A stretch of DNA of 15,076 nt from a virus (Duplodnaviria > Heunggongvirae > Uroviricota > Caudoviricetes). The notes beneath the pieces were generated by a model. That model saw only the letters and a list, made by a program, of their open reading frames with translations. It searched no databases and had not been told where the DNA came from. The translations under genes were made by a program, and so were the position numbers. Below, in pieces: positions 1-15,076 of this stretch (position 1 is its first letter; each line of letters opens with the position of its first letter). The stretch covers positions 1 through 15,076 of the IMG/VR virus record IMGVR_UViG_2651869755_000010; one strand, given 5' to 3'.

Positions 1-247
1 GGCGGAGAGCATCAATGGTCTTTACAAAGCGGAGGTAATACACCGTAAGAGCTGGAAAAACCGTGCAGAAGTGGAACTGGCCACACTCACGTGGGTGGAC
101 TGGTATAACAATCGACGATTGCTGGAAAGGCTGGGCCATACTCCTCCGGCAGAAGCAGAAAAAGCTTATTATGCTTCCATCGGAAACGATGATCTGGCAG
201 CCTGAGTTCACAGATAAAATACTCTCCAGGAAACCCGGGGCGGTTCA
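1..247 (+). mobile_element. IS3-family insertion sequence, IS629-like, terminal portion containing the 3' end of the transposase gene; terminus at about 247
   Basis: Reverse complement of 206-247 reads TGAACCGCCCCGGGTTTCCTGGAGAGTATTTTATCTGTGAAC, which matches the terminal inverted repeat of IS629/IS3-group elements as I recall it (TGAACCGCCCCGGG...). It lies directly after the stop codon of an IS3-type transposase reading frame. Confidence 0.75.
2..205 (+). CDS. IS3-family transposase OrfB, C-terminal 67 codons (5'-partial, continues upstream of window)
   Basis: Frame 2 translates without a stop from the window start to TGA at 203-205: AESINGLYKAEVIHRKSWKNRAEVELATLTWVDWYNNRRLLERLGHTPPAEAEKAYYASIGNDDLAA. 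This is the characteristic C-terminal tail of IS3-family integrase-like transposases. Confidence 0.75.
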   Translation, partial: AESINGLYKAEVIHRKSWKNRAEVELATLTWVDWYNNRRLLERLGHTPPAEAEKAYYASIGNDDLAA

Positions 248-902
248 CAATAATAATTGGGCGTGTAGCACGTATCAGATCAATTGGCTTATCCAGATCG
301 TCAACGGTTGTTTTTTCACTGGACTGATAGAGCTTATTAACGTCTTTTTTGTTAATCGCACCAACTGTCATTACCATGATCTGCATAACAGAGCTGGTTG
401 CAAAATTTCGCACATCCGCAGGTTTAGACGAGTCATACAGATAGTATTCGTATGGAATTCCCGCATAGAGGCTTTTAAAATGTTCTTCAGTGATTTGTAG
501 TGTTTTATAAACGCCTTCCTTGATGGCAATGGAAGGAACCACAATGATAAATTTGCTCATGCCATAACGTTTATTCAGCTCCAGCATGGTGCGAAGATAA
601 ACATACGTTTTACCTGTCCCTGTTTCCATCTCGACAGTAAAATCATGGCTGTCGAGCACAGGTGAAGGTGGAAGCTGATTCTTCAACTGAACCTTGTTCA
701 GGTTTTTCAGCAGAACATCATCTTCGGGTATCTGTGGGTTTACAGGCATTGAACCTGTTGCGGCTTCAAATGAGAGTGCGCCCTGAGCTGGGGCCAGCAC
801 AGTCATTTCGCTCTCCCATTTCTCTTGCCCTTCAAATAAATCACAGACCGAAGTAATGGCGTTTTGCTGATAGGTAAGGTCAGATTCAAAATGTAGTTTC
901 AT
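248..902 (-). pseudogene. res: Type III restriction enzyme Res subunit, N-terminal fragment of about 218 codons, interrupted by the IS insertion
   Basis: Minus-strand ORF starts with ATG at 902, 9 nt after the mod stop, and carries helicase motif I (FTVEMETGTGKTYVY). The reading frame enters the IS terminal repeat at 247/248, around ...RATRPIIIV, where helicase motif II (DExH) would be expected. The remaining 51 codons of the track ORF 87..902 are read-through into IS sequence. Confidence 0.7.
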
Positions 903-911
903 CTCATTCCC

Positions 912-2888
912 TTACAGGCTGTGCAGGTTAGTCAGGCCGTGTTGTTCCAGAATGGCGCAAAGATTTGTTTTAGCGACGTTATTTTCAAACGCATCATCAA
1001 GGAAATAGCAGACCGTATCTTTCCCAACTTTTAAACTCTTATGCCAGTCGATGATCCCCTTGGTCAGTTCTTCTACTGAAGATGCAGGGATTTGTTTAGC
1101 AAAGCAGGTAAACAATTTGCCACCGTCAACGCAAGAAACGGTTAATCCATCAAACTGACGGGTTTCAATGTCTACACTCAGGTCAATGCCACGCTTAAGC
1201 ATCAACTCTGTGAGTAAATCTTCTTCACTACGGCCTTCGAGGATTGGACTTACATAGGCATCAATCTGTTGTGAAAGGGTATCAGCAGTCGCTTCCCACG
1301 GACGGATGTTAGATGTATCAAGTTTAAACACACGAAAGCCAACATCACCTTTCCATTCTGGATTGTCTTCACGAACTTTTTTACCTGCTCGGCGAAGGCG
1401 TTCTTTAGTTATTTCAGAAATTTTTAATGGCATTCCATTTTTATTTAAGAAGCTTGCAGCAACAATCTGCTCCTTTGTTTCTGGAACAACTGGTTCTGGT
1501 AGTTGCGTAATGATAAAATTTATCTTTCTATTCTTTGTTGCATTGGCCATGAAAACGGCATGACCAAAAGTACCTGATCCCCCAAAAAAATCAAGTGCTA
1601 TACCTTTTTCATTTGGGTGTGTAGCTATTTCTACTATACGTAAAAGAGTACCCAAAGGTTTTGGTCTTGAAAAAACTTCTTTTTCGAATCCCAGCTCAAT
1701 AAATTGTTCACTACCTCTTTCACTATTTACATCTTTATGTGTCCATGAAGAGGTAGCCTTTATTGCATCTCTTTTTGATAAATAGTCTTTCTCCATGATT
1801 CCCCACGTTTTTTTTGTGGGCATGAACTTAGCATAAACACTATCAATTTTCGATTTAGCTGTATCAAAACCCCATCGCCATCGTCCATCAGTACCATCAT
1901 CTCTAATTGGTTTAATTTCAATTAAATCATTTTTTTTCTGGTCTCTAGATATAAATAGTTCGTTTGTTTTTTGATCATAGTAAAAATAGTAAAACATATC
2001 TGGTCGATCTTCTCTACGGTCAGCATCACCAGTTTTACGTAAATCTATGTCACGGAATATTTCACCGTTTTCGTCTGTCTTATTATATCTCTTTGTTATT
2101 TTATCGTCAGGCTCAAAGCCATAGGTTTTTGCATAGTTAATGTTCTTCGCCATTACTAATATATATTCATGAGCTGTTGCTATGAATTTATCGTCAGACC
2201 GTCCTTTTGGATTGTTAGTATTAGCAATAAGGGATATGAAATTTTCTTCTCCAAAAATCTCAAAGCATATGCCACATAGGTTGTGAAGTTCATTTTCATC
2301 AATCGATATAAAAATAAAACCAGAGTTGGCAAGTAAGTTTCTTGCTAATTTTAGGCGAGGGTACATCATATTTAGCCAATCAGTGTGATAACGTCCACTG
2401 GTTTCTGTATTTGTGCTTAAGCGATTTCCATCTTCAGTTTGTCCAGTGATTTCAAGATAATTTTTCATGTTATCTTGGAAGTTATCTGGATACACAAAAT
2501 CTTTCCCGGTATTATAAGGCGGATCGATGTAAATAAGCTTAACTTTTCCAGCGTAGCTTTTTTGAAGAAGCTTCAACACTTCAAGGTTATCACCTTCGAT
2601 CATGACGTTTTTAGTGTTATCCCAATCAACGCTTTCATCTTTACATGGACGTAATGTGCCACGGGAAGGGGTAAGAGCAAGCTGACGAGCCTGACGCTTA
2701 CCATGCCAGTTCAGGCCATAGCGCTCTTCTTTGTCGTCTACATTTTCACCCAAGAGCTGTTTTAAAACGTCAAAATCAATACCGTTTTCATTAAATGCTT
2801 CAGGAAACAAAGAGTTAAGTTTGCTGATATTATCTTCAGTGATATTCATTGATTGTAGTTCTGTCATATCAGAAGTTATTTTTTTCAT
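912..2888 (-). CDS. mod: Type III restriction-modification system Mod subunit (beta-class N6-adenine DNA methyltransferase)
   Basis: 658-aa ORF with motif IV IYIDPPYNTG near residue 120 and motif I LDFFGGSGTFGHAV near residue 430 (beta-class order). The N-terminal region (LNWHGKRQARQLA, IEGDNLEVLKLL) resembles EcoP15I/StyLTI-type Mod. It lies directly upstream of a res-like helicase ORF. Confidence 0.9.
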   Translation of the reverse strand: MKKITSDMTELQSMNITEDNISKLNSLFPEAFNENGIDFDVLKQLLGENVDDKEERYGLNWHGKRQARQLALTPSRGTLRPCKDESVDWDNTKNVMIEGDNLEVLKLLQKSYAGKVKLIYIDPPYNTGKDFVYPDNFQDNMKNYLEITGQTEDGNRLSTNTETSGRYHTDWLNMMYPRLKLARNLLANSGFIFISIDENELHNLCGICFEIFGEENFISLIANTNNPKGRSDDKFIATAHEYILVMAKNINYAKTYGFEPDDKITKRYNKTDENGEIFRDIDLRKTGDADRREDRPDMFYYFYYDQKTNELFISRDQKKNDLIEIKPIRDDGTDGRWRWGFDTAKSKIDSVYAKFMPTKKTWGIMEKDYLSKRDAIKATSSWTHKDVNSERGSEQFIELGFEKEVFSRPKPLGTLLRIVEIATHPNEKGIALDFFGGSGTFGHAVFMANATKNRKINFIITQLPEPVVPETKEQIVAASFLNKNGMPLKISEITKERLRRAGKKVREDNPEWKGDVGFRVFKLDTSNIRPWEATADTLSQQIDAYVSPILEGRSEEDLLTELMLKRGIDLSVDIETRQFDGLTVSCVDGGKLFTCFAKQIPASSVEELTKGIIDWHKSLKVGKDTVCYFLDDAFENNVAKTNLCAILEQHGLTNLHSL

Positions 2889-3067
2889 AAAAAGTATCCG
2901 TCATGAGGTCACGGGAAATCAGTGTCCGAAATTGGTAAGCATTTTACGGTATGAAGTGATAGCCATCAACCAGTGATGGCTATTCAAACATATCTAAAAC
3001 AAAGGGTTACATGCTGCTATATGATGGGTTATCAAACGGTTAGCCGTAATTTTCTAACTCATAATGT

Positions 3068-4339
3068 TCACCTTTGGGCAAACTCAAACGGCCTGACCAT
3101 ATCGTTTCGATTGGCATCAAGGAAGTCAGCCCACCACTGGAGCATCAGTCGGCGCTGGTCAAGGTGTTTAGCCTTATGGGTATAAGCAGCACGGACGCTG
3201 TTGCTTTCCTTATGACTCATCTGAAGCTCTACAGCGTCTTCTGACCACAAACCTGACTCAATTAAGGCACTACAGGCCAGCGTGCGAAAACCGTGCCCAC
3301 AGATGTCCTGCTTCGTGTCATAGCCCATATTGCGAAGGGCTTTGTTGATGGTATTTTCGCTCATGGGCTTAAACGAGTCATAACAGCCAGTAAAGATTAA
3401 TCCATCATCATGGCCTTCTTCATAAGTCAGTTGTCGGATCTCTTTGAGTATCTTCATGGCCTGCTTACAAAGGGGAACGAAGTGCTTACGCTTCATTTTA
3501 GCCCCACGAGTTGAATGTTTGACGTTTTCAATCGCTTCACGCTGTTCGGGTATCACCCATAACTTACTTTTGAAATCAATTTCTGACCAGCGAGCGAAAC
3601 GCAGCTCACTGGAACGAATGAAAATCATCAGATTGAGCTGTATTGCCAGTATGGTTAACCTGCGGCCTTTGTATTCGGCAATTTTTTTCAGTAGTTGGGG
3701 TATTTCTTCCAGTTCCAGTGCAGGGCGGTGTTCAGTCTGCGGTTTCTGAATAGCACCTTCCATATCATAGGCCGGGTTATGACGTATAAGTTTCTGCTGA
3801 ACAGCATGACGCAGGATCGCAGTAATGTATTGTTGAATGCGCATGGCAACTTCAAGATAGCCAAGTGCCTCAACCTTTTTCACTGGAACCAGCAGATCAC
3901 CCGTATCCAGTTCGGCAACATCTTTATCGCCAATTGTCGGGAAGACATAGGTTTCAAGGCGCTTCCATACGGAATCACCATAATCTTTAGACCATTTTGT
4001 TTTCGTGGAGAACCAAGCTTTAGCGACTACGCTGAAAGAGCGTGTTTTATCACGTTTAGCTTTTAGCTCTTTAACTTCTGCCTGTTTCTTGGCATTAGGG
4101 TCAATGCCCTGAGCAAGAAGCCTTCTGGCTTCATCACGGCGTTGTCTTGCGTCAGAAAGAGAAACAGCAGGGTAAACACCAATAGAGAAGAGTTTTTGCT
4201 TCCCTTCAAAACGGTAGGCCATTTGCCAGTATTTGGAACCCTTCGGGGTAACGCGAAGGAACATACCAAAGCCATCAGTAAGCTTGTATTCCTTCTCAAG
4301 GGGTTTGGCATTTTTTGCTTTAATATCAGTCAGTGACAT
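3068..4339 (-). CDS. int: P4-type tyrosine integrase (site-specific recombinase) of the tRNA-Asn island
   Basis: The track ORF is 434 aa; the likely start is the internal ATG at 4339 (MSLTDIKAKNAKP...), typical of P4-family integrases. N-terminal arm-binding-like domain and C-terminal catalytic domain (GHGFRTLACSAL..., AAYTH). Adjacent to the tRNA-Asn 3' end. Confidence 0.85.
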   Translation of the reverse strand: MSLTDIKAKNAKPLEKEYKLTDGFGMFLRVTPKGSKYWQMAYRFEGKQKLFSIGVYPAVSLSDARQRRDEARRLLAQGIDPNAKKQAEVKELKAKRDKTRSFSVVAKAWFSTKTKWSKDYGDSVWKRLETYVFPTIGDKDVAELDTGDLLVPVKKVEALGYLEVAMRIQQYITAILRHAVQQKLIRHNPAYDMEGAIQKPQTEHRPALELEEIPQLLKKIAEYKGRRLTILAIQLNLMIFIRSSELRFARWSEIDFKSKLWVIPEQREAIENVKHSTRGAKMKRKHFVPLCKQAMKILKEIRQLTYEEGHDDGLIFTGCYDSFKPMSENTINKALRNMGYDTKQDICGHGFRTLACSALIESGLWSEDAVELQMSHKESNSVRAAYTHKAKHLDQRRLMLQWWADFLDANRNDMVRPFEFAQR

Positions 4340-4484
4340 GAAAAAATCCCCTCGATTGTTGGTAAAAGGCAAATCGAACCAGCATTACCAGCATTTTTAC
4401 CATCAAAATGATATGGCTTCGAGTGGTTTTTAGTGAACGAGGGTGAACGACTGAAGAGGGATAACCGATTGATAGAAATGCAGA

Positions 4485-4510
4485 AAGCAGACGTTAGTGA
4501 ACGTCTGCTT
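4485..4510 (-). terminator. Candidate intrinsic terminator downstream of tRNA-Asn
   Basis: 9-bp inverted repeat AAGCAGACG / CGTCTGCTT with an 8-nt loop, 10 nt after the tRNA 3' end on the minus strand. It is followed on the transcript by a moderately U-rich tract (UCUGCAUUUCUAU). Confidence 0.35.
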
Positions 4511-4519
4511 CCTTGAAAA

Positions 4520-4595
4520 TGGCTCCTCTGACTGGACTCGAACCAGTGACATACGGATTAACAGTCCGCCGTTCTACCGACTGAACTACAGAGGA
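4520..4595 (-). tRNA. asnT: tRNA-Asn (anticodon GUU)
   Basis: Reverse complement is TCCTCTGTAGTTCAGTCGGTAGAACGGCGGACTGTTAATCCGTATGTCACTGGTTCGAGTCCAGTCAGAGGAGCCA, 76 nt, a canonical cloverleaf with a GTT anticodon and encoded CCA. Called asnT rather than another asn copy because of the neighbouring mtfA and serU. Confidence 0.93.
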
Positions 4596-4695
4596 ATCGT
4601 GAGAACGGGGCGCATATTACTTAGCGGTACCTTGTCTGTCAACACTAAATTTCATAAGCCATTTCAATTGGTTAATTAATCTGCAAAGTTGTTAA

Positions 4696-5493
4696 TTAAT
4701 GAACATTCGTCGCCGAAAACGAGTCTGTATCATTAGCGTGATGCAGTCTCTGCAAAGGATCTTGTTGATAAAATTGACAGAAACGTTGCCACAATGAAGG
4801 GAAACGAGGAGCAAAAAGTTCTGGGGCGCTAAAGAAATATTCAGAAAGTACGGCAAAACATTCAGCAGGATCACTGGCAGCATAAGCATCAATGCTCGCC
4901 GCATTCTCACCAACTAATTCGATTTCTTCCTGAATGTTGTTCATTGCAGCATGAAGATCGTGTTCCCAGCCAGCAACCTCACGCAACGAAATAAAGGGAA
5001 CTCCGCTGGCGCGATCGCCGTTACGGGTGTCCAGCTTATGAGCGACTTCATGAATAATCAGGTTAAAACCAGAAGCATCAAAAGAATCTTGTATATCCAA
5101 CCAGTTCAAAACGATAGGCCCTTGCTGCCAGCTCTGACCTGACTGAACAATACGTTGGTTATGCACCAGACCGATATCGTCTTCCCATTCATCATCGACC
5201 ACAAATGGCGCAGGATAAATTAAGACTTCATGAAAACCATCCAGCCATTCCAGTCCTAACTCCAGAACGGGCAGGCAAAATAGAAGTGCTATCCGGCAGC
5301 TTCTTAATGAATTCAGCTCAAAGCCCTGTAAAGGAACAAGCCGTTTTTGCTGTAAAAAACGTTCGGCAAGAGCGACCAATTTGCTTTGTTCCTGTTCTGT
5401 CAGACACGTTAAAAGGGGGATCGATAGTGCTTCCTGCCAGGGAAGGGCAGTTTGATGTGCTGATTCTTGTACTTTCCAGGGCCACTTAATCAT
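4696..5493 (-). CDS. mtfA: MtfA (Mlc titration factor A), zinc-dependent peptidase family
   Basis: 265-aa product starting MIKWPWK... (ATG at 5493, internal to the track ORF 4696..5532). HExxH zinc-binding motif (IIHEVAHKL). Conserved position between asnT and serU, as in E. coli K-12. Confidence 0.9.
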
Positions 5494-5586
5494 CGTTTTG
5501 CTCGCAAACTCGTCACTTGAACAAAATTGCACGGACAGGGACTGTTAAAATGCCAAATTTCCTGGCATCATGGCAACCATCTGAAC

Positions 5587-5676
5587 GGAGAGATGCCGGA
5601 GCGGCTGAACGGACCGGTCTCGAAAACCGGAGTGGGGGCAACTCCACCGGGGGTTCAAATCCCCCTCTCTCCGCCA
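5587..5676 (+). tRNA. serU: tRNA-Ser (anticodon CGA), with long variable arm
   Basis: GGAGAGATGCCGGAGCGGCTGAACGGACCGGTCTCGAAAACCGGAGTGGGGGCAACTCCACCGGGGGTTCAAATCCCCCTCTCTCCGCCA, 90 nt: class II tRNA with CGA anticodon in the loop CTCGAAA and encoded CCA. Confidence 0.93.
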
Positions 5677-5721
5677 AAATTCAATCACTTACACATCATT
5701 AAGTCAGTGACAAAAATCACA

Positions 5722-5753
5722 CTTGGAATTACTTGGAATATTTTCTTGGAATA
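5722..5753. repeat. Three direct copies of CTTGGAAT in the tRNA-proximal att region (candidate integrase arm-type sites)
   Basis: CTTGGAAT occurs at 5722-5729, 5732-5739 and 5746-5753; the last two sit within a duplicated TTGGAATATTTTC. The repeats straddle the integrase stop codon at the prophage end. Confidence 0.3.
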
Positions 5754-6754
5754 TTTTCAGGTAACGGGACATCAAGTGTCGGTGAAACTTTAACCTTCCT
5801 GTCATAGATTAGCACTTGCCCCTCGGTTTTGTGACCAGAGAAAAGTTGCTTATCCCGACTGCTTCCTTCATAGTCTGAAATTCCTTTCGCCTTCAGATCA
5901 TGAAAGGTGAAGTCGGTTAAAATACCTGAAATTTTGCCTGCGCGATTTCTTGCTTCTACCCACATTTCGTTAAAGCCTTTGTACATATATCGGTTGCCGT
6001 ATTGATTGCTGATTACATAGGCGGATGTTGGTAACTGTTTTGCTTTTTCGATCGCCGCCTGTAATCGTGGACTCCATGCTTTTATCTGTTTTTTTCCTGT
6101 TTTCCCTTGCTGGATAAAGATCCCGTCGTTTCCAATCTGCTCCCATTTCAGCGATAACACATCGGAAACCCTCGCTGCACACAGATAGGCAATTTCCATT
6201 GCGATAAAAACAGGAAGAGGTGCAACGCTTAATACTGCCTGGTATTCTTTGTCGGTTACATATCGTTCGCGGTTTTTGGCCTTGAATTTACTTACACCTG
6301 CACATGGGTTAGCCTTCACGTACCCTCGCTCATACCCCCAACTGTAAACACGGGACATACTGCTTTTTTCATGGTTGGCTTGCGTTTTACTCTGCTCCCC
6401 TCTTTTGTCCATGTATCGACGGATGTGTTCTGGTTTTATGGAATCCGCTGGTACCTTACCGAATACGGCAAGCAACTTTTTTTGATGTTGCAGATAATCT
6501 TTTTGTGTTCTTGGACTAAGGTCACTGTAATAGGCGCTGGCGAGGAATTTTTCCCACAAGCGACCGAATGTCATTGCACGATCGCGATTATTTACAGTTT
6601 CCTCATACTTTTTCCATAAAGCAGCTAAACCATCCTTGATGGCGGTTAGTGTGACAGATTCTCTGGATGTTGGTTTCCATACATAACTATATTTATTTGG
6701 GTATACATTTGGAGGTAATTTTTCGTGTTCAGGATTTTTCCTTCGTCTTCCCAT
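5729..6754 (-). CDS. int: Prophage tyrosine integrase
   Basis: 341-aa ORF with phage-integrase-type C-terminal catalytic region (...FTFHDLKAKGISDY..., ...GHKTEGQVLIYDRK...). Convergent with and adjacent to tRNA-Ser; start codon overlaps the stop of the upstream xis-like ORF (ATGA). Confidence 0.88.
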   Translation of the reverse strand: MGRRRKNPEHEKLPPNVYPNKYSYVWKPTSRESVTLTAIKDGLAALWKKYEETVNNRDRAMTFGRLWEKFLASAYYSDLSPRTQKDYLQHQKKLLAVFGKVPADSIKPEHIRRYMDKRGEQSKTQANHEKSSMSRVYSWGYERGYVKANPCAGVSKFKAKNRERYVTDKEYQAVLSVAPLPVFIAMEIAYLCAARVSDVLSLKWEQIGNDGIFIQQGKTGKKQIKAWSPRLQAAIEKAKQLPTSAYVISNQYGNRYMYKGFNEMWVEARNRAGKISGILTDFTFHDLKAKGISDYEGSSRDKQLFSGHKTEGQVLIYDRKVKVSPTLDVPLPENIPRKYSK

Positions 6755-6957
6755 CAGATCGCACCAAAATTCGGCTCTACCTCGCGTGGTGGTAAAGTTT
6801 TATTGCAGGTAAATAGATCCCGGCTGACAATCGGTTTGCCACTACGATTGGTATAGAACGGAAGCCCGTTTTCCATTAACCATTTTCGCTGGTGGCTTGC
6901 ATATTTGCAGCCCGTTAATATTAGCAATTCATCTTCGGTTAAAAATAAGCTGCTCAT
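6754..6957 (-). CDS. Excisionase-like small protein (DUF4224-like) upstream of integrase
   Basis: 67-aa ORF MSSLFLTEDELLILTGCKYASHQRKWLMENGLPF..., overlapping the int start by 1 nt. Position and sequence pattern match the small proteins found directly upstream of prophage integrases. Confidence 0.55.
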   Translation of the reverse strand: MSSLFLTEDELLILTGCKYASHQRKWLMENGLPFYTNRSGKPIVSRDLFTCNKTLPPREVEPNFGAI

Positions 6958-7015
6958 AGCTATATCTCATAACCGCCGCTAACTATATACGGTTAGCGGC
7001 AATTAGGGTTGAACA

Positions 7016-9457
7016 TTAAAAATCAGCCTGACTCGGGATCAGTTTTTGCCAGATAGCTGAAACGTATTTTGCCTGGTAACGAGCGTCATCAAGTGCATTA
7101 TGGCGCTCACCTTCGAATGGAATAGCCGTTCTGGCATCGAAGTCTATGGCTTTCCCCAGCTCAACGATTGTGCGTACATCGCGATCGTTGTAGTAACGCC
7201 ACGGGCAGGTGATCCCCTGCCGTTCGTATGAACGGCGCAAAATCGTGTTGTCGAAGTTGGCTCCATTTCCCCAGACCTGAACAAAAAATTCACCGGAGTT
7301 TTCGTCGATAAATTCCCGCAATTGTAACAGTGCATCATCTAACGGGATTTCATCGGTCATAATGGCAGATTGCGCTTCGCGTGATTGCTTAAGCCACCAT
7401 TTAATGGTGTCCCGATCAATGACTCCGCCAGCAGTTTCCAGATCGATAGTCTTACTAAATTCCGGTCCCACATCTCCGGTTTGCGGATCGAAAAATATTG
7501 CACCTATTGAGATGATCGGGGCATCAGGATTTTTTCCCATGGTTTCAAGGTCGATCATTAGATGGTCACACGTCCTGCTGGTGGATGTGATTTCTTGATG
7601 ACCGTTCACCTTAATTGAGTGATCTGCCGTCTCGCCAGTTTCATTATCGCTATCGTGATGCTGATTGCCGCCAGTGTTCTCCTTGTGTGGATGTTCAGCG
7701 CCTTCCATTTTCTCCGGATCATTTTCCTGAACTTCAACCTGATTCTCTTCATCGAATGTTTCCTGGTATGTTGCGTCGCCCATCACCGCGCCACAATCAG
7801 GGCAGTTGCCGCCACCGCTCTGACCGCAGGCGGTGCTGACTTTTTCCGGTTCCTGTTGCGCTACTGGTTCGGATTGTTTCGTTTCTGGCTCGTTTTGTAA
7901 CGCATTTGGGCTGTTTTGTTCCGCTTTTTGGTCGTTCCGTTCCGATTCATGCTGGTTCTGGTTCACAGAATCGCGAGTCTGGATCCCCTTGACCCATTTC
8001 GGATCATTAGGGTCGCTAATCCCCTCAACAAATTCACCACGCGATACAGCAAGTAACTTATCGGCGTCAGGCTGGCTGATATTGGCTGCCTGCATAATTT
8101 TGTTTACTTCGTCAGCGGTGACTTTTACTTGGTTAGCGGAACTCACCTGCGACTGAGCATCCAGCGACTGCGCGTTCTGGCCATGTTCAGTTGTATCCGG
8201 TTCCATTGTTTCAGTTGTTGCCTGTTCACCTGCCATTGCGTCAGATGGTTGTGGTTTTTCTTCTTCTGTTTCACGCTCAGTAACCACCTCGCGGTTAATT
8301 TCTTCCAGGATATCTTTTTCCGGCGTATGCCGGGCAGCTGTGAGAGTTTCCTTGCTGGGGTTCTCGTGATCAGTTTCCGTCAAATAGGCGTTGATATACC
8401 CCTGAAGGCGTCCCGGGTAGTGATAAAATTCAGGGTGTGCGCTTCGGATAAGTGCAAAAATAGCGGCGCGGGAATAGTCCAGAATACCCGGGGTTGCACG
8501 AAGTGCTGCGGACCATTCTTTGAACGGACTTTCTTTGTTCAGGACTACTTCTTTTGCGCGACGATAAACGCTGCCCGGAATTTCATAAATATTAAAATCC
8601 ATCGGAAGTGTGGCTGCTGCAATCTCCACATCCAGTGTGTCGAGGGTGTGTACTAAATTCGGATTGCGATCGGTTTTGTTCCCACCGCCAGCATTAGCAC
8701 CGGAAGCCGTGCGGGTGATGCGTGAAACACGATTTCCTTTCATCCACTCTTTTGTCAGCAGACCCCGATCAGTGTAGTCAGCGTCCAGGTATGCTTCGAA
8801 AAAAGCAGTTATTAGTCCCAGGTCTGAATTACCAGGATTAGGGAAAACTTTGTCAGTGTCACGAACCAGTTTGTGGAGGTCGCGAATCTCCAGCGAGTCG
8901 AGCAGACTGGTTTTATGCGAAATAGCCAGGGCAGTAACAGCCGGTAGTTCTTCAGCCCGTGCAATGTGTAATGCCTGGAGTTCGTCGCGTGAAACGTGCG
9001 TTACTGGTTTTTCGCTGCCGTGTTGAGCAAGCCAACGAATGGGCAGTTCCTGACCGGAGACAGGCAGAAGCATGCTCTCCTCAATCTCAGTCATGTCTTC
9101 GCCGTTGATGTTGGTATTGTCAGTGCTGGCTGGTTTGTCCTGAACAGAGGGGGAAGGGCCGATAAATGTCATTGTGATGCCATCTTTCCCGCCTTTTTCA
9201 TAGCGGTTGCAGAATTCAGTATCAAACACGCCTTCTGGCGGAAGGTCGTCAACAACGGGCAAATTGACGCGGACGGGTTTTTTAAAGTCGTCTTCATCAT
9301 AATCGTTGTCATCCATTGCGGTAATGCAGCGGGAGATTGCAACAGATAATTTTTTTGCTGTAGTCCAGTAAAAACCACCTTTAATTCCCAGGCGTTTTCT
9401 TACTTTGTCATTTTTTGCTTCGCAATATAGTGCAAATTCTTCTTTATCAGTGCTCAT
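7016..9457 (-). CDS. Prophage exonuclease: long RecE/YdfE-like N-terminal region with acidic low-complexity centre and C-terminal DnaQ-like DEDDh 3'-5' exonuclease domain
   Basis: 813-aa ORF. The C-terminal 190 aa carry Exo I (MIDLETMG), Exo II (VWGNGANFD) and Exo III ([13 protein letters not shown]) motifs. The centre is Glu/Gln/Asp-rich and contains [13 protein letters not shown]. Position between xis and the dicB module matches ydfE (Qin) and recE (Rac). Confidence 0.8.
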
Positions 9458-9550
9458 TATTGATAAACCTCATCACAGATTTAAGGGTGAACAAATCTCT
9501 GCCATTGCTGACATATAAGAATGAAACTGGATATTTATTACGGTGCTGTT

Positions 9551-9739
9551 TTAAAATCCTGCCGGGATTTCGTTATCCTGGTGAATAACTTTATCGACCG
9601 GATAACAGTTGCCTGGAATTTTCTGTTCGGTTGCTGCGGCCATACATTCCTGCATTGTTCTGTGAACACTGACTGCAATATCAACTGGCTCTCCGGAAAC
9701 AAGAAAAACCGTCAGAATAAGTGCAAATACTGGATTCAT
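9551..9739 (-). CDS. ydfD: YdfD-like small lysis protein of the dicB operon
   Basis: 62-aa product MNPVFALILTVFLVSGEPVDIAVSVHRTMQECMAAATEQKIPGNCYPVDKVIHQDNEIPAGF, with a hydrophobic N-terminus. Start is the internal ATG at 9739 with an AAGGA Shine-Dalgarno, overlapping the dicB stop (ATGA). Matches my recollection of K-12 YdfD in size and sequence. Confidence 0.65.
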   Translation of the reverse strand: MNPVFALILTVFLVSGEPVDIAVSVHRTMQECMAAATEQKIPGNCYPVDKVIHQDNEIPAGF

Positions 9740-9924
9740 TGTGCACATCCTTTTGGCATCAGACGTAAACGGGCCAGCATTGAAACAATGCATACTTTAT
9801 TTAATAACTCCCGTTCGTGTTTTCTTTTGTTAATGGCCTCTTCAGTGAATACAGGATTACTGATAGTGACACCAATTTCAAAACAACCTTCAGACGTATT
9901 AACGTTTGGTAATAACGTTTTCAT
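9736..9924 (-). CDS. dicB: DicB cell-division inhibitor (MinC-dependent FtsZ-ring inhibitor)
   Basis: 62-aa product MKTLLPNVNTSEGCFEIGVTISNPVFTEEAINKRKHERELLNKVCIVSMLARLRLMPKGCAQ, starting at the internal ATG 9924 with a GAGGA Shine-Dalgarno 8 nt upstream. Near-identical to my recollection of E. coli DicB, and directly downstream of DicF. Confidence 0.75.
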   Translation of the reverse strand: MKTLLPNVNTSEGCFEIGVTISNPVFTEEAINKRKHERELLNKVCIVSMLARLRLMPKGCAQ

Positions 9925-10093
9925 TATCGCGTCCTCAACAATGAATTTTGTGATGCAGTGCCTGGTGCCTCCAGGTGACGTTAACCAGTTAACAATTAAC
10001 GCCGGATACAGAGAATCCACCCATAACACTGTTTTTGGTTTTAACTGTTCCGCGTGCGCTTAGCCGCATTCACCGCATCACAAAATTCACTTT

Positions 10094-10151
10094 AAAAACG
10101 GCGGCAGAGCAGTCACGGAGTAAAACTGATACCGCCAAACGTCACCAGAAA
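10094..10151 (-). ncRNA. dicF: DicF small RNA (ftsZ-targeting Hfq-dependent sRNA) with U-tail
   Basis: Minus-strand sequence TTTCTGGTGACGTTTGGCGGTATCAGTTTTACTCCGTGACTGCTCTGCCGCCG followed by TTTTT matches the 53-nt DicF sequence as I recall it. Contains a GGCGG...CCGCC terminator-like stem and lies between ydfC and dicB as in Qin. Ends are approximate. Confidence 0.7.
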
Positions 10152-10491
10152 ATTGATAACAGAGGGCGTTGCAGCGGGGTTGTCACTTAAGCGTATGGTC
10201 AACCTGACAACCCGGTGTCCTCAACGGGGAAGGAATAACCCCGCCATACTTACCGCCGCGCCATTTCGCGGATTGCCACAACCGGAAGCGCACGGTCGAC
10301 GAAAATTTAACGACAGGCTATCTATGAACCAGCTACCTCGCCGTGCGCTTTCGCGTTATGGTCTGACCTTTCAGGGAAATATCCTTTCAGTAAACTGTCT
10401 GTGCCGGATGCTCACCCGTGTCCGGCGCACGCACTCCACCTCATCCGTGGAGAACTCCTTAATTACCAACCTTAGCTTCGTTGGTTAGCTA

Positions 10492-10710
10492 TTAACGCGG
10501 GTATGTAATCATTCTGGCAATGCTTAATGCCGCTGCTTTTTCCAGATTAGTGATATCCTGCTCCAGAGCGGACAGATTTTCAGCCTGCTTAGCCCTGGCT
10601 TCATTGGCCCATTTCAGATCCTGCGCTGCATTAATTTTCTGGTGCATCCACTCATAAAGTTCATCATCGGTATAGTCTGGCGCGATGATGACGGGTTCTC
10701 GTTTCTGCAT
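10492..10710 (-). CDS. ydfC: YdfC-like small protein of the dicB operon
   Basis: 72-aa ORF MQKREPVIIAPDYTDDELYEWMHQKINAAQDLKWANEARAKQAENLSALEQDITNLEKAAALSIARMITYPR, with an AAGGAG Shine-Dalgarno 6 nt upstream of ATG 10710. Size and position match ydfC upstream of DicF. Confidence 0.65.
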   Translation of the reverse strand: MQKREPVIIAPDYTDDELYEWMHQKINAAQDLKWANEARAKQAENLSALEQDITNLEKAAALSIARMITYPR

Positions 10711-10802
10711 GTCGGCTCCTTGTGGTTAGCGTTGCCTGCTTTTAACCACGTCAGGCGAGGTGGTATCCTCTGAGGGGTCTGTTACTCGAGAGGAAATTGG
10801 TT

Positions 10803-11003
10803 ATGAGTACAATCAAGTTTTCTTGCCCAGAATGTGGTGGCGAAGTCTTTGACACATCCTTTAAGTCGCAGGGCTCTGACAGTTTCGCGGGAGCCATCTG
10901 CAAAAATTGTGGTCACCTTGTAACTGAAGATGAGTCCTCGCAGTTCGATGACGAAATCGTTGACAATATCTTCGGTGCACTTACCAGAGACTTTCTGAAG
11001 TAA
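10803..11003 (+). CDS. Small zinc-ribbon protein (CPECGG...CKNCGH), hypothetical; oriented opposite to the surrounding early-left operon
   Basis: 66-aa ORF MSTIKFSCPECGGEVFDTSFKSQGSDSFAGAICKNCGHLVTEDESSQFDDEIVDNIFGALTRDFLK, with a GAGAGGA Shine-Dalgarno 8 nt upstream of ATG 10803. Two CxxC pairs are spaced as in a zinc ribbon. The overlapping minus-strand ORF 10782..11138 uses 6 rare Arg codons (AGA/AGG/CGA) out of 9 and looks like a shadow frame. Confidence 0.4.
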   Translation: MSTIKFSCPECGGEVFDTSFKSQGSDSFAGAICKNCGHLVTEDESSQFDDEIVDNIFGALTRDFLK

Positions 11004-11049
11004 AGGCGCATACCGCTTAGTTACCGCTCTGATAATTCTTACCTGTCCG

Positions 11050-11092
11050 GCAATGGCGCTGATGTCAATATAAAGCGCCATTGCTGCTTCTT
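11050..11092 (+). terminator. Candidate intrinsic terminator downstream of the zinc-ribbon ORF
   Basis: Perfect 11-bp inverted repeat GCAATGGCGCT / AGCGCCATTGC (11050-11060 and 11074-11084) with a 13-nt loop, followed by TGCTTCTTTG. The loop is larger than usual for a terminator. Confidence 0.3.
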
Positions 11093-11348
11093 TGCCGATC
11101 CCGGGATGCCTTCCATTCTGATGTTTGACTTCGCCCACTGAGAAATCCTCTGTTTCCCCTTAACGCCGGGGTAGCGGAACAAAAACCTGCTGCATAGTTA
11201 TTAAAGTTGAACCCTGCCGTCATGTTCTTACGCCTCGGGCTGGCTACTTAACCCCTGACCACTGCCTGGTAACTCGAAGTATTGCCCTGCATTCTGTAGG
11301 ATGGGGTGAGGGAATGAATGAAGTTTAGAAAAACGAACTTTTCAGGTC

Positions 11349-11370
11349 AATGTTTTTTTATCAAAACATT
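11349..11370. promoter_or_regulatory. Candidate left operator (oL-like) palindrome AATGTTTT-N6-AAAACATT downstream of cI, probable pL region
   Basis: Palindrome TGTTTT-tttatc-AAAACA at 11351-11368, extending to 11349-11370. It has the same 6-6-6 geometry as the palindrome overlapping the cI start at 12073-12090. Confidence 0.35.
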
Positions 11371-11434
11371 TTAAGCAGGCAGCTGTTAAGCCATCACCAC
11401 GATGGCATACAGTTAATCAAATAGATGAGGTTGG

Positions 11435-12073
11435 TTAAATATCTTGTTGAATTTTAAAGCATACGCCCAATATGCAAGATAGATCATCCAGCATAATTGA
11501 AGGGTAGCGAGGATTCGTGGGGACTAAAAGAATATCCGGCCCTTCTATCTCCAGTTTACGAATGACAGGTGTTGTGGTCCCTTTGGGTAAGGCAAGGACA
11601 ATATTTCCTGGTTGTACGGTTCGATCGGGATCAACAAAAACTGTTGAACCATTTGGGATGGAAACTCCCCCACCAGATGTTGACATACTGTCACTCTCTA
11701 GAACAACTGCAAAGGTATTGACCGGGATTTCTCCGACAAGCTGCACACAAGAGGTTATTGAGGAATTTTTCATATAATCACTCCAGCTTGCTGCCTGCTG
11801 AAGTGATAGTAGCGGAACCGTTTTTATCGGCGGTAAAGATAGATCAAGCGAATCACCTGTATTTAACTCTCCTCCATTAAGAAGCCAATTTTCGTTTACT
11901 TTCAATATTTTTGCCAGGGAACTTATGTAACGCGAGGACGGCGCTCCTCCACCGTTCATCCATTGACTTACGGAGCCTTTTGATGCGCCAGTGCCATTGA
12001 CAAGGTCTTTGCCTTTCAGGTTTAGCGCATGCATACGTTGGGTTATGCGTTCAGATATAGTTTGCTTGCTCAT
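11435..12073 (-). CDS. CI-type prophage repressor (N-terminal HTH, C-terminal S24 LexA-like autopeptidase domain)
   Basis: 212-aa ORF with an N-terminal HTH region (...GKDLVNGTGASKGSVSQWMNGG...) and a C-terminal S24-like domain (candidate Ser in VLESDSMSTSGG, Lys in VIRKLE). Divergent from a cro-like gene. No Shine-Dalgarno precedes the start codon, which lies inside the operator palindrome. Confidence 0.85.
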   Translation of the reverse strand: MSKQTISERITQRMHALNLKGKDLVNGTGASKGSVSQWMNGGGAPSSRYISSLAKILKVNENWLLNGGELNTGDSLDLSLPPIKTVPLLSLQQAASWSDYMKNSSITSCVQLVGEIPVNTFAVVLESDSMSTSGGGVSIPNGSTVFVDPDRTVQPGNIVLALPKGTTTPVIRKLEIEGPDILLVPTNPRYPSIMLDDLSCILGVCFKIQQDI

Positions 12074-12136
12074 GTTTTGATTTTAAAACACAGATGGTTT
12101 TGTTTCTTGACTTTCTTTGGTTTTGATTATTAAACT
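12073..12136. promoter_or_regulatory. Immunity-region operator/promoter segment (oR-like): palindrome TGTTTT-N6-AAAACA at 12073-12090, degenerate copy at 12119-12136, candidate pR -35 TTGACT at 12107-12112
   Basis: The 91-bp divergent cI/cro intergenic region holds TGTTTTgattttAAAACA, GGTTTTgattatTAAACT and a recurring GGTTTTG motif. TTGACT lies 17 bp upstream of TTAAAC, oriented toward cro. Confidence 0.4.
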
Positions 12137-12164
12137 TTTGACGTTCAGTTTTATGGAGCGACTC

Positions 12165-12407
12165 ATGAAAAAATCAGAAGTATTAGGCTATTTTGGCGGA
12201 GTTGTTAAAACAGCCGCAGCTCTAGGAACGTCAAAAACCACAGTCAGCATGTGGGGGGAAGAGGTTCCGTGGAAATGGGCGTTGCTAATTCAGGCAGTCA
12301 CTGCCGGGGCGCTCAAATATGAGTTACACATACCGACGGTTGTCATTCCCGGTTCTGATCATAATCCGCCTTCTAACCAAGGGGGGATTCATGAAAATCA
12401 AGCATGA
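12165..12407 (+). CDS. Cro-like / YdaS-family HTH regulator
   Basis: 80-aa ORF MKKSEVLGYFGGVVKTAAALGTSKTTVSMWGEEVPWKWALLIQAVTAGALKY..., with a GGAG Shine-Dalgarno upstream of ATG 12165. It is the first gene of the rightward operon, divergent from cI. The 3' end overlaps the next gene by 17 nt, so the true C-terminus is uncertain. Confidence 0.6.
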   Translation: MKKSEVLGYFGGVVKTAAALGTSKTTVSMWGEEVPWKWALLIQAVTAGALKYELHIPTVVIPGSDHNPPSNQGGIHENQA

Positions 12408-12816
12408 ACACATCCGCATGGCGATGAATGCCTGGGCGCATCCGGACGGCGAAAAAGTACCGGCTGCGAAAATTACCAAAGCGTATTTCGAGCTGGGAAT
12501 GACGTTCCCGGAACTGTACGACGACAGCCATCCGGAAGCCCTGGCCCGTAATACCCAGAAAATTTTCCGCTGGGTGGAGAAGGACACCCCTGATGCTGTT
12601 GAAAAAATTCAGGCTCTGTTACCGGCGATCGAAAAGGCGATGCCGCCTTTGCTGGTGGCCCGTATGCGCAGCCACAGTTCTGAATATTACCGTGAGATCG
12701 TCGAACGGAGGGATCGGCTGGTGAAGGATGTCGATGATTTTGTTGCGTCAGCGGTTGTTTTGTATGACCAGATGAATCGCGGCGGCCCGGCAGGGAATGC
12801 TGTGGTGATGCACTAA
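12391..12816 (+). CDS. YdaT-like protein (second gene of rightward early operon)
   Basis: 141-aa product MKIKHEHIRMAMNAWAHPDGEKVPAAKITKAYFELGMTFPELYDD..., starting at the internal ATG 12391 preceded by a GGGGGG Shine-Dalgarno. The N-terminus (MKIKHEH) matches my recollection of YdaT-family proteins that follow cro-like genes in Rac-like prophages. Confidence 0.6.
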   Translation: MKIKHEHIRMAMNAWAHPDGEKVPAAKITKAYFELGMTFPELYDDSHPEALARNTQKIFRWVEKDTPDAVEKIQALLPAIEKAMPPLLVARMRSHSSEYYREIVERRDRLVKDVDDFVASAVVLYDQMNRGGPAGNAVVMH

Positions 12817-12838
12817 AAGCACGGTGTTCGGGGGTTTT

Positions 12839-13801
12839 ATGAGCAGCAAGCTTCATGGTCTTGTCTGGGAAGGGTGCGCCTTCACCGGCATGATCTTATC
12901 CAGGGTGGCGGTTATGGCCCGTCTTGCAGACTACAGCAATGACGAGGGTGTGTCATGGCCTGCCATTGAAACTATCCGGCGTCAGATCGGTGCAAGAAGT
13001 GAATCCACAGTGAAATCGGCTATTGCAGAACTGGCGAAAGAGGGCTGGCTGACGAAGGAAGAGCGTAAGGTCGGTGGGCGTAATGTAAGCAATATCTATC
13101 GGCTTAATGTGGAAAAACTCGAAGCAGCTGCGGCGGCGGCGCGTGAGTCATATAAACCGAAAAGAAAAATTAGCCCGGCAAAAAATGACCCGTTAACAGT
13201 TGACCCGTCAAATATTGACCCCTCAACGGTTGACCCGTCAAATTTTGATGGATCAACTGTTGATAAAAAACTGCCGATTAGGGGGGCGATGATTGACCCC
13301 GATCCGTCAGTATTAAAACCTGATCCGTCAGATAAAAGATCTTCTTGTCCGGACGCTTCGCAACCGGACCCGCAGACGGCTGAACAGGATTTTTTAACCC
13401 GACACCCTGACGCGGTTGTGTTCAGTGCGAAAAAACGCCAGTGGGGAAGTCAGGAAGATTTGGTGTGCGCACAGTGGATCTGGGGACGAATCGTGAGTCT
13501 TTACGAGCAGGCGGCCAGCTATGATGGCGAGATCACTAGACCGAAAGAACCCAACTGGACAGCATGGGCCAATGACGTTCGCACAATGCGGATGCTGGAT
13601 GGCAGAACTCACAGACAAATTTGTGAAATGTTTGGGCGTCTCCAGCGGGATTCGTTCTGGGTAAAAAACATCATGAGTCCGGCAAAACTCCGGGAAAAAT
13701 GGGATGAACTGGTTATCCGCCTGGGGCGTTCGCCTGCGCAGCGTTGCGTGAATCACATTTCTGAACCGGACACTGAAATACCGCCGGGATTCAGGGGGTG
13801 A
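12839..13801 (+). CDS. Phage replication initiator (O-like, N-terminal winged-HTH) with internal iterons
   Basis: 320-aa product from ATG 12839 (track ORF begins at GTG 12824). The N-terminal wHTH-like region (...SWPAIETIRRQIGARSESTVKSAIAELAKEGWL...) is followed by a DP-rich linker encoded by 15-bp direct repeats. Sits directly upstream of a DnaC-like gene. Confidence 0.75.
   Translation: MSSKLHGLVWEGCAFTGMILSRVAVMARLADYSNDEGVSWPAIETIRRQIGARSESTVKSAIAELAKEGWLTKEERKVGGRNVSNIYRLNVEKLEAAAAAARESYKPKRKISPAKNDPLTVDPSNIDPSTVDPSNFDGSTVDKKLPIRGAMIDPDPSVLKPDPSDKRSSCPDASQPDPQTAEQDFLTRHPDAVVFSAKKRQWGSQEDLVCAQWIWGRIVSLYEQAASYDGEITRPKEPNWTAWANDVRTMRMLDGRTHRQICEMFGRLQRDSFWVKNIMSPAKLREKWDELVIRLGRSPAQRCVNHISEPDTEIPPGFRG
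13186..13260. repeat. Five tandem 15-bp iterons (TGACCCGTnAAnnnT) inside the replication initiator gene; probable phage replication origin
   Basis: TGACCCGTTAACAGT, TGACCCGTCAAATAT, TGACCCCTCAACGGT, TGACCCGTCAAATTT and TGATGGATCAACTGT are contiguous. More degenerate copies follow (TGATAAAAAACTGCC at 13261, GACCCCGATCCGTCAG near 13295, TGATCCGTCAG at 13321). Confidence 0.6.
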
Positions 13802-13807
13802 CGTGTC

Positions 13808-14554
13808 ATGAAAAACATTGCGGCAGTTGGGGTTCTTGAACGTATTCGCAGACTTGCACCACAGGGGTCGGTTCCACCGTACCGGACGGTGGAGGAGTGG
13901 CGGGAATGGCAACTTGCTGAAGGACGAAAACGCAGCGAGGAGATTAACCGCCAGAATCGCCAGTTGCGGGTGGAAAAAATCCTGAATCGTTCGGGCATCC
14001 AGCCTCTGCACAGCAAATGCTCGTTTGCAAATTATCAGGTGCAGAACGACGGGCAAAAATACGCGCTGAGCCAGGCCAAATCCATAGCTGACGAACTGAT
14101 GACCGGGTGCACGAATTTTGTGTTCAGCGGTAAAACCGGCACCGGGAAAAATCACCTTGCAGCGGCGATGGGCAACCGGCTGATGGTGAAGGGGCGCAGC
14201 GTGATTATCGTCACCGTGTCTGACGTCATGAGCGTGTTGCATGACAGCTACGACAACGGCAAATCCGGGGAAAAATTTTTACAGGAGCTTTGCGGGGTTG
14301 ATTTGCTGGTCCTGGATGAAATAGGCGTTCAGCGGGAGACGAAAAACGAGCAGGTGGTATTGCACCAGATAATTGATCGCCGGACAGCATCACTGTGCAG
14401 TGTCGGGATGTTAACAAACCTGAATCATGTCGCAATGAGTACGCTTCTTGGTGAGAGGATTATGGACCGCATGACCATGAACGGTGGTCGATGGGTGACG
14501 TTTAACTGGGATAGCTGGCGTCCAAATGTCAGCAATATGAGGGTTGTGAAGTAA
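13808..14554 (+). CDS. DnaC-like helicase loader / IstB-like AAA+ ATPase (phage replication protein)
   Basis: 248-aa ORF with Walker A (FSGKTGTGKNHLAAA) and Walker B (DLLVLDEIG), preceded by an AGGGGG Shine-Dalgarno. Downstream of the initiator gene as in Rac ydaU-ydaV and lambda O-P. Confidence 0.85.
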   Translation: MKNIAAVGVLERIRRLAPQGSVPPYRTVEEWREWQLAEGRKRSEEINRQNRQLRVEKILNRSGIQPLHSKCSFANYQVQNDGQKYALSQAKSIADELMTGCTNFVFSGKTGTGKNHLAAAMGNRLMVKGRSVIIVTVSDVMSVLHDSYDNGKSGEKFLQELCGVDLLVLDEIGVQRETKNEQVVLHQIIDRRTASLCSVGMLTNLNHVAMSTLLGERIMDRMTMNGGRWVTFNWDSWRPNVSNMRVVK

Positions 14555-14575
14555 TTTTGTCCGGAGGATATTTTA

Positions 14576-15076
14576 ATGGAAACCGTATCTGACGCACTGA
14601 AAGCACTGAAAAAAGCCTCTTCACATGTGGTGGCAGCTCGCCTTGGAATCAGTCGTGAAGAGGCTGTCAACGAGCTGTGGGAACTCAAAAGAAATGGCGT
14701 CGTTGATAAAACTGGTCACACCTGGTTTCTGGCTGGCGAAGGTGAATCCCGGGTAACCGAAGAGCGGCCAGTAAAATCTGAAGCACAGGATATGCTGACC
14801 GGGGAGGTCGAACAAAAAGTTACCGCCGACATGATGATTGAGTTTATCGGTCAGGATGGGGCTAAAACGTGTGAGGAACTGGCGGGTAAGTTCGGTGTCA
14901 GTACTCGCAAGGTTGCTTCCACGCTGGCGGTGGTAACCGCAACGGGGCGGCTGGCACGCGTTAATCAGAACGGTAAATTTCGTTACTGCATGCCGGGCGA
15001 TAATTTACCAGCAGAGCCGAAAGCCGCGCTGGTAACGGAAAGTGATGGTAAGGCCTTTCCTCAGCCAGCAGGTGCT
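14576..15076 (+). CDS. Hypothetical prophage protein with two tandem winged-helix-like repeats (3'-partial, continues past window end)
   Basis: ATG 14576 is preceded by GGAGG with an 8-nt spacer; the frame is open for 167 codons to the window end. Two similar segments: ...AARLGISREEAVNELWELKRNGVVDKTGHTWF... and ...LAGKFGVSTRKVASTLAVVTATGRLARVNQNGKFRY... Confidence 0.55.
   Translation, partial: METVSDALKALKKASSHVVAARLGISREEAVNELWELKRNGVVDKTGHTWFLAGEGESRVTEERPVKSEAQDMLTGEVEQKVTADMMIEFIGQDGAKTCEELAGKFGVSTRKVASTLAVVTATGRLARVNQNGKFRYCMPGDNLPAEPKAALVTESDGKAFPQPAGA

Follow-up and report, generated by a model that had tools for sequence, protein, structure and literature searches.

A 15-bp repeat array inside a prophage replication initiator gene as the probable iterons of a lambda-type origin

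Why does a phage replication initiator gene carry a run of 15-bp repeats in its middle, and are these repeats there for the peptide that they encode or for the DNA sites that they form? The question is raised by positions 1 to 15,076 of the IMG/VR virus record IMGVR_UViG_2651869755_000010, a stretch that was analyzed at its full length and is called the window here. The window is Escherichia coli DNA and has, in its right part, the early genes of a lambdoid prophage, among which an open reading frame (ORF) of 320 amino acids (aa) encodes the initiator. The 15-bp repeats are probably the initiator-binding iterons of the prophage replication origin, situated inside the initiator gene in linker-coding DNA. 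Judged from sequence comparison, they are best read as part of a lambda-type origin of approximately 205 bp (13165-13370), which would coincide with the DNA for the disordered linker of the initiator (Table 1).

Tandem Repeats Finder (TRF) reported 5 copies of a 15-bp period at 13165/13174-13248, with 71-73% matches, along with a 30-bp period that covers 13174-13263 with 80-84% matches. Five in-frame units at 13184-13258 encode aa 116-140, between the winged helix and the helical domain of the protein. A preliminary description of this DNA had reported 15-bp in-frame repeats in the initiator ORF, and the TRF period and the codon register bear this out, as does the peptide, which is the one that it quoted. 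It had also counted five direct repeats: five units are present, but the fifth is an inverted copy, which the repeat search of the window found as inverted repeat I1 as well. As to the degenerate copies that it mentioned, there is one degenerate unit on each side of the array, whereas 13293-13331 is a separate element with two GATCCGTCAG boxes that is conserved in all relatives. Three exact copies of the 12-bp core TTGACCCNTCAA stand 15 bp apart, at 13200, 13215, and 13230, compared with an expectation of about 0.007 exact matches in the whole window (11 specified bases, both strands; our own arithmetic). Self-matches at a lag of 15 peak at 43/60 at 13165-13239 and do not exceed 31 elsewhere in the window, and the value of 43/60 was reached neither in 300 dinucleotide shuffles of the window nor in 2000 codon shuffles of the ORF. 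The TTGAC of the repeats was also considered as a promoter -35 element, which was rejected as there is no promoter-like site within the array. Since the unit measures 15 bp, units can come and go, at five linker residues each, with the reading frame preserved.

Relatives of the initiator gene were collected by a scan of one genome per species, which gave 80 loci, and six variants were added by exact protein look-up. An in-frame 15-bp array was found at the same place in 76 of the 77 loci with a full-length ORF, spread over many Enterobacterales genera, and arrays are also present in the phages SfIV and phiP27 and in Klebsiella phage Kp4866-6; the absence of the repeats from functional relatives, which the preliminary description had named as evidence that would count against it, was not seen. 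Among the relatives, the copy number ranges from 2 to 9, always in 15-bp (5-aa) steps, and in closely related E. coli alleles, which are 320, 315, 310, and 305 aa long, the differences fall precisely at the array and amount to whole units. Together with the predicted disorder of the segment, this bears out the idea of a repeat-encoded linker with a variable copy number. A scan of IMG/VR with the window protein returned 80 near-identical alleles (22 DNA alleles) with a constant copy number, so that the five-unit array is stable over short time scales, and this set is uninformative on diversity.

The sequence of the repeats differs with the class of the N-terminal domain (N-domain). Class A N-domains (MSSKLHGLVW, window included) pair with nTT-GAC-CCN-TCA-AAn units, and class B N-domains (MSTKLTGYVW or MSVKLSSYVW; SfIV gp41 is an example) pair with TCT-GAC-NNN-TCA-AAA units (the TCTGACNNNTCAAAA arrays). 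A third repeat type, TCAAAATTTGAG-GNN with the peptide SKFEG, was observed in Kp4866-6 (locus L173, ORF nt 330-400), whose N-domain is 72% identical to that of the window; there are thus more than two specificity classes. In Edwardsiella anguillarum (locus L004, ORF nt 354-488), nine units are arranged as a 45-bp super-repeat of the order forward-forward-reverse, three times (IDPPT, VEGLT, VDPPN ...), which points to higher-order units of three sites. The super-period of the window array is 30 bp, as opposed to 45 bp in L004.

A repeat of this kind might be selected purely as protein: in-frame duplication would have extended a pentapeptide linker rich in Asp, Pro, and Ser, and the DNA would have no function as a site. 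The segment is indeed repetitive and predicted to be disordered, its length changes in whole 5-aa steps, and recent duplication by itself would yield similar codons. Third codon positions would then be expected to vary while the peptide is conserved, which was not observed. For the tally of third bases, the units were defined by self-similarity with no motif given, which avoids circularity, and the expectations derive from the way in which these amino acids are encoded in the remainder of the genes. Codon 1 of the class A units stands for I, V, N, or F, yet its last base is T in 43 of 43 (15.4 expected); codon 4 stands for S, P, L, or A, yet its last base is A, again in 43 of 43 (8.1 expected), so that both third bases are fixed across four amino acids each. 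The corresponding counts in class B are 271/297 for T in codon 1 (82 expected) and 276/297 for A in codon 4 (75 expected). Averaged over the three codon positions, the information content is nearly even (1.15, 1.08, and 1.02 bits); it tracks the position in the motif instead: the best-conserved positions of the arrays include two third positions, though the amino acids vary, and the variable positions form a 3-nt spacer across a codon boundary. Likewise, class A Ser is encoded by TCA in 42/45 array codons versus 78/349 outside the arrays, Asp is encoded by GAC within arrays and mostly by GAT elsewhere, and the same codon choices are found across genera whose N-domains are only 35-60% identical. 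Furthermore, class A arrays mix TTGACCCCTCAA and its exact reverse complement TTGAGGGGTCAA, which alters the peptide from DPS to EGS but keeps the DNA motif. A near-palindromic site, TTGA-N4-TCAA, predicts both the codon pattern and the inverted units, whereas a peptide under protein-level selection does not. The codon comparison thereby shows that selection on the array acts at the DNA level, and a repeat selected purely as protein is highly improbable. The motif-position fixation, the reverse-complement units, and the class-specific repeats all speak for the earlier claim that the repeats are DNA sites like those of ori-lambda in gene O, and they suggest that these sites are kept as such and are specific to the DNA-binding domain of the initiator.

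Conservation extends beyond the array. In an alignment of 81 distinct loci of both classes, the approximately 110 bp after the array, up to about 13370, are strongly conserved as DNA. The commonest synonymous codon at conserved residues accounts for 92% in aa 150-176 versus 51% in the N-terminal domain, and synonymous fixation is back at the baseline past about aa 177, near 13370. In the region of the first GATC box, the synonymous sites of GAT CCG TCA GTA are at least 96% fixed across these 81 loci, and alongside the GATCCGTCAG boxes the core contains the strings ATAAAAGATCTTCTTGTCC and ATAAAAGATCTTC. The element ATAAAAGATCTTCTTGTCCGGAC at its right end resembles phi80 TTAAAAGATCTTCGTCCGAG and lambda GAAAAGATTATTCGTCAGAG in alignment, both of which stand at the right edge of the AT-rich regions of these phages. 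Together with 13306-13345, this element is a candidate unwinding or loading zone.

Such conservation, chiefly that of the 110-bp core, could alternatively reflect frequent homologous recombination at a mosaic lambdoid module boundary (a "linker sequence") instead of selection on an origin. It was observed that the N-domain, the array, and the conserved core move jointly, that the same core accompanies both iteron classes, and that the C-terminal domain and the loader gene are exchanged right after the core. The swapped C-terminal domains are either lambda-O-like or of an unrelated "...ITDQAKQVL.HLN..." type, and the initiator gene is followed by a DnaC-like gene in the window and in locus L164 and by a lambda-P-like gene in the Salmonella loci L168 and L169, while in L165 and L166 the loader gene is absent and DUF977 follows directly. 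Recombination, however, leaves the motif-position conservation, the inverted units, and the class-specific repeats unexplained, and the core is kept at synonymous sites across Escherichia, Providencia, Yersinia, and Edwardsiella despite strongly diverged flanks, which makes this explanation very unlikely. As a separate observation, L166 has just two iteron units, and its two-unit array without a loader may mark a decaying module.

Selection at the DNA level and the difference between the classes point only to binding by some factor and not to a start of replication at this place. The array could therefore be a real protein-binding array that is not the origin, for example an autoregulatory or copy-control site (by titration or handcuffing), a transcription roadblock in the replication operon, or a target for the exclusion of related phages, with the origin located elsewhere. 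The AT-rich tract is weak, and the iterons of plasmids serve control as well as initiation. On the other hand, the array (aa 116-140) matches in position the annotated iterons of the homologous genes of lambda (aa 117-145) and phi80 (aa 122-147), the adjacent conserved core resembles the right edge of their AT-rich regions, and no second repeat array or perfect motif copy was found within the 15-kb window. A binding array with the origin elsewhere is thus rather unlikely, and the reading of the array as origin iterons is preferred.

The preliminary description had proposed to look for an AT-rich unwinding element immediately downstream. The tracts next to the array are moderate, with an AT content of 77% over 13240-13270 and of 65-70% over 13306-13345, in a segment that is conserved and partly similar to the right edge of the AT-rich regions of lambda and phi80. 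Four GATC sites lie in 13251-13341, which is unremarkable for the window, as it has other such clusters; the weight given to these sites rests on their conservation across relatives only. The sole perfect DnaA box consensus in the 15-kb window (TTTTCCACA, 13108-13116, minus strand, within the initiator gene and 70 bp upstream of the array) was considered and rejected as unconserved. It is kept in 4/14 class A and 0/69 class B loci, about one match is expected by chance, and it is probably a chance occurrence. No IHF consensus was found near the array.

Several points weigh against the origin reading. A strong AT-rich DNA unwinding element was not found near the array, where the tracts have 65-77% AT over 30-40 bp, and in a helix-stability scan the AT tract near the array came out at least as stable as the promoter region at 12050-12190; as the AT-richness is modest, the placement of the unwinding site is uncertain. 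The iterons of lambda and phi80 are approximately 20-24 bp apart versus 15 bp in the window. A motif-based tally of the codons is partly circular, which the motif-free tally avoids, and since units and loci share ancestry, counts such as 43 of 43 are not counts of independent events. The prophage in the window may be defective, and the window stops at 15076. Finally, no experimental paper on the origin or the binding of this initiator family was found in the literature: full-text searches for the motif strings returned unrelated papers only, and the SfIV genome paper, the sole result of the searches by phage name, mentions no origin.

The architecture of the protein is lambda-O-like. The ORF matches phrog_391 ("replication initiation O-like") over its whole length (E 2e-115), and in BLASTP its C-terminal domain is 39% identical to lambda O over 119 aa (aa 182-300, E 5e-26) and 36% identical to phi80 gp15; with a DnaC-like gene next to it, the assignment as a lambda-type initiator gene holds. 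The alignment with lambda O is restricted to aa 182-300, and the homology does not extend to the N-terminal domain. Pfam found HTH_36 at aa 25-71 (27.9 bits) and a weak DnaD_N match but no Phage_rep_O match in the initiator, which thus falls outside the lambda O family in the strict sense of its N-terminal domain. In an AlphaFold2 (AF2) model built on 29 homologues, aa 1-105 are predicted to form helices and a beta-hairpin wing, with a predicted local distance difference test (pLDDT) score of 73-90. A Foldseek search of the PDB with this model gave generic winged-helix regulators and DnaD-N alone (E at least 0.009), matches that back the predicted fold class only, and a sequence profile search of the PDB with the initiator gave no match. 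The lambda/phi80-like C-terminal domain and the position of the iterons thus indicate the layout of lambda O with a different DNA-binding head. The K-12 Rac module (oriJ, YdaU) was suspected at first and was rejected because YdaU of MG1655 is a DUF1376 protein and thus a different initiator.

From these features we infer how the origin would work. Dimers of the N-terminal winged-helix domain would bind the near-palindromic cores TTGA-N4-TCAA, and the five good cores at 15-bp spacing, one of them inverted, would give rise to a nucleoprotein complex like the lambda O-some. The duplex would then open in the adjoining core of approximately 110 bp, with its two GATCCGTCAG boxes, its A/T-rich tracts, and ATAAAAGATCTTCTTGTCC, and the lambda-O-like C-terminal domain would recruit the DnaC-like loader together with the host DnaB. 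A more far-reaching idea, which we put forward only tentatively and consider doubtful, is that the sequence, length, and "orientation" of the 70-residue disordered linker are set almost wholly by selection on the origin DNA, that the number (2-9) and orientation (DPS versus EGS) of the iterons tune both origin strength and the reach between the domains for DNA binding and for loader recruitment, and that the invariant GATCCGTCAG boxes make firing dependent on Dam methylation or SeqA.

Table 1. Features of the initiator gene, the candidate origin, and the neighboring genes (positions in the window)
Feature	Positions	Strand	Basis and details
Replication initiator gene, 320 aa, lambda-O-like architecture	12839-13801	+	ORF; phrog_391; Pfam HTH_36
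N-terminal winged-helix DNA-binding domain (predicted), aa 1-105	12839-13153	+	class A (MSSKLHGLVW...); AF2, Pfam
DNA for predicted disordered linker, aa 110-181	13166-13381	+	pLDDT <50; coincides with the entire candidate origin
C-terminal helical domain, aa 182-300	13382-13738	+	BLASTP, tblastn against phage records; AF2 helices aa 180-297
Unit 0, degenerate (ATT AGC CCG GCA AAA)	13169-13183	+	in TRF/repeat-search arrays; equivalent counted as a copy in relative L165
Unit 1, AAT GAC CCG TTA ACA, NDPLT	13184-13198		iteron 1 core ATGACCCGTTAA, 13185-13196, + strand, 2 mismatches
Unit 2, VDPSN	13199-13213		iteron 2 core TTGACCCGTCAA, 13200-13211, + strand
Unit 3, IDPST	13214-13228		iteron 3 core TTGACCCCTCAA, 13215-13226, + strand
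Unit 4, VDPSN	13229-13243		iteron 4 core TTGACCCGTCAA, 13230-13241, + strand
Unit 5, FDGST, inverted	13244-13258		core 13245-13256, - strand; top strand TTGATGGATCAA, bottom strand TTGATCCATCAA; 1 mismatch
Degenerate sixth unit GTTGATAAAAAACTG, TTGA half-site and A-run	13259-13273	+	inside the 77% AT stretch 13240-13270
Iteron-like TTGACCCC fused to GATC box 1 GATCCGTCAG (13301-13310)	13293-13310	+	repeat family D3
A/T-rich spacer TATTAAAACCT between the GATC boxes	13311-13321	+	
GATC box 2 GATCCGTCAG, 21 bp after box 1	13322-13331	+	repeat family D3, conservation
ATAAAAGATCTTCTTGTCCGGAC	13332-13354	+	likeness to phi80/lambda, helix-stability scan, conservation
S24-type CI-like repressor gene	11435-12073	-	
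P22-Cro-like gene	12117-12407		upstream of the initiator gene
YdaT-family protein gene, also matching a CII-like PHROG	12391-12816		upstream of the initiator gene
DnaC-like (DnaC/IstB-like ATPase) helicase loader gene	13808-14554	+	Pfam IstB_IS21 and Bac_DnaA; NF009043, 504 bits; phrog_50

The genes around the initiator follow the order cro-like, cII-like, initiator, and loader (early right operon). The loader product matches the DnaC equivalog model with an E of 5e-89 but lies under the curated cut-off of that model, and it is presumed to be the partner of the initiator. The protein encoded at 12391-12816 carries the Pfam label "YdaT_toxin", yet it matches PHROG 163, "CII-like transcriptional activator" (E 1e-47), and its gene occupies the cII position of the operon; the label "toxin" is probably misleading here. 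E. coli ATCC 25922 (locus L001; NZ_CP009072, 3991973-3992935) has a gene with 100% identity to the initiator ORF, and there the identical gene stands behind another immunity module (RelE/RelB and another repressor) and is integrated beside potC. This difference from 11435-12816 of the window is ordinary lambdoid mosaicism, with the junction upstream of the YdaT-family gene.

Some further observations concern other parts of the window. To the left of the prophage, at 87-4372, lies a second mobile element. It encodes a 658-aa N6/N4 DNA methylase, a fragment of a ResIII/DEAD helicase, and a second tyrosine integrase (3068-4372, minus strand), which has an Arm-binding domain. Perfect tandem repeats of short units (ACTTGGAATT x1.9 and CTTGGAATATTTT x2.1) are found at 5721-5758, where the prophage integrase gene (5729-6754, minus strand) has its 3' end, and adjoin a chromosomal M90 peptidase gene (4696-5532), and this may be the region of the attachment site. 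A degenerate 21-nt periodicity (41/60 lag-21 matches) at 7854-7960, in the minus-strand exonuclease gene 7016-9457, encodes a Q/E/N/P-rich low-complexity linker between the Exonuc_VIII and the Rv2179c-like 3'-5' exonuclease domains.

The module is very common, as sequences resembling the initiator gene were found in 3265 of 5426 complete E. coli genomes, and members of its family are carried by phiP27, by the serotype-converting Shigella phages SfII and SfIV, and by prophages of Klebsiella, Salmonella, Edwardsiella, and Providencia. For this module, the stretch 13165-13370 now provides a concrete candidate origin of approximately 205 bp. It also illustrates dual coding with unusual clarity, as DNA-site selection dictates the amino acids of a disordered segment, including in-frame reverse-complement units. 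In practice, the 15-bp arrays and the invariant GATCCGTCAGTA box could be used as annotation markers of the origin and of the specificity class. Conceptually, nothing here goes beyond the lambda paradigm.

It remains to compare the array with known origins. In iteron plasmids (e.g., RepA of pPS10 and pi of R6K), winged-helix initiators bind tandem repeats beside an unwinding region, and in some of them, such as P1 oriR, Dam GATC sites are found near that region. Plasmid iterons usually measure 17-22 bp, are not part of the rep gene, and come with DnaA boxes. The array of the window, in contrast, lies inside the ORF and has no conserved DnaA box, and is thus not of the plasmid type.

Iterons inside O-type genes, on the other hand, are established for lambda, P22, L, and the Stx phages (PMC8022706, PMC7466680). 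The origin ori-lambda in gene O consists of four 18-bp iterons and an AT-rich region (Tsurimoto and Matsubara 1981, cited in PMC8022706; PMC7466680). Like ori-lambda, the window has a mid-gene array between an N-terminal DNA-binding domain and a homologous C-terminal domain, an internal dyad symmetry in each site, a partly similar sequence at the right edge of the AT-rich region, and the same operon order of cro-like, cII-like, initiator, and loader genes. Unlike ori-lambda, its N-terminal domain is HTH_36 and not Phage_rep_O, one of its units is inverted, its flanking tract has only 65-77% AT, and its partner is a DnaC-like AAA+ loader and not lambda P. The origin ori-phi80 in gene 15 (JX871397, four annotated gp15 binding sites) shares the intragenic sites, the homologous C-terminal domain, and a post-iteron motif that resembles ATAAAAGATCTTCTTGTCCGGAC, while it differs in iteron sequence, in its 21-bp spacing, in the N-terminal domain, and in its partner, as phi80 gp14 is annotated as lambda-P-like.

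In Stx-phage origins there are six iterons as compared with the four of lambda (PMC7466680), and iteron number varies between related phages, and initiator length with it, as in the family of the window. The Stx phages, however, carry true variants of lambda O and ori-lambda, whereas the family of the window ranges from 2 to 9 units of 15 bp (5 aa). The putative origins in gene 18 of P22 and gene 18 of phage L were inferred from sequence (PMC8022706), which is the same kind of evidence as here, and likewise consist of family-specific repeats within a distantly related O-type initiator gene; there, the repeats measure approximately 20 bp in P22 and 11 bp in L, and the partner is a DnaB-type helicase. 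As intragenic repeats are textbook knowledge for lambda, were deduced from the sequences of P22 and L, and are variable in number in the Stx phages, the array of the window is a further case of a known kind. What distinguishes it within this kind is the 15-bp (5-codon) unit, the mixed orientation of the units, the wide range of copy number, and the two invariant GATC-containing boxes.

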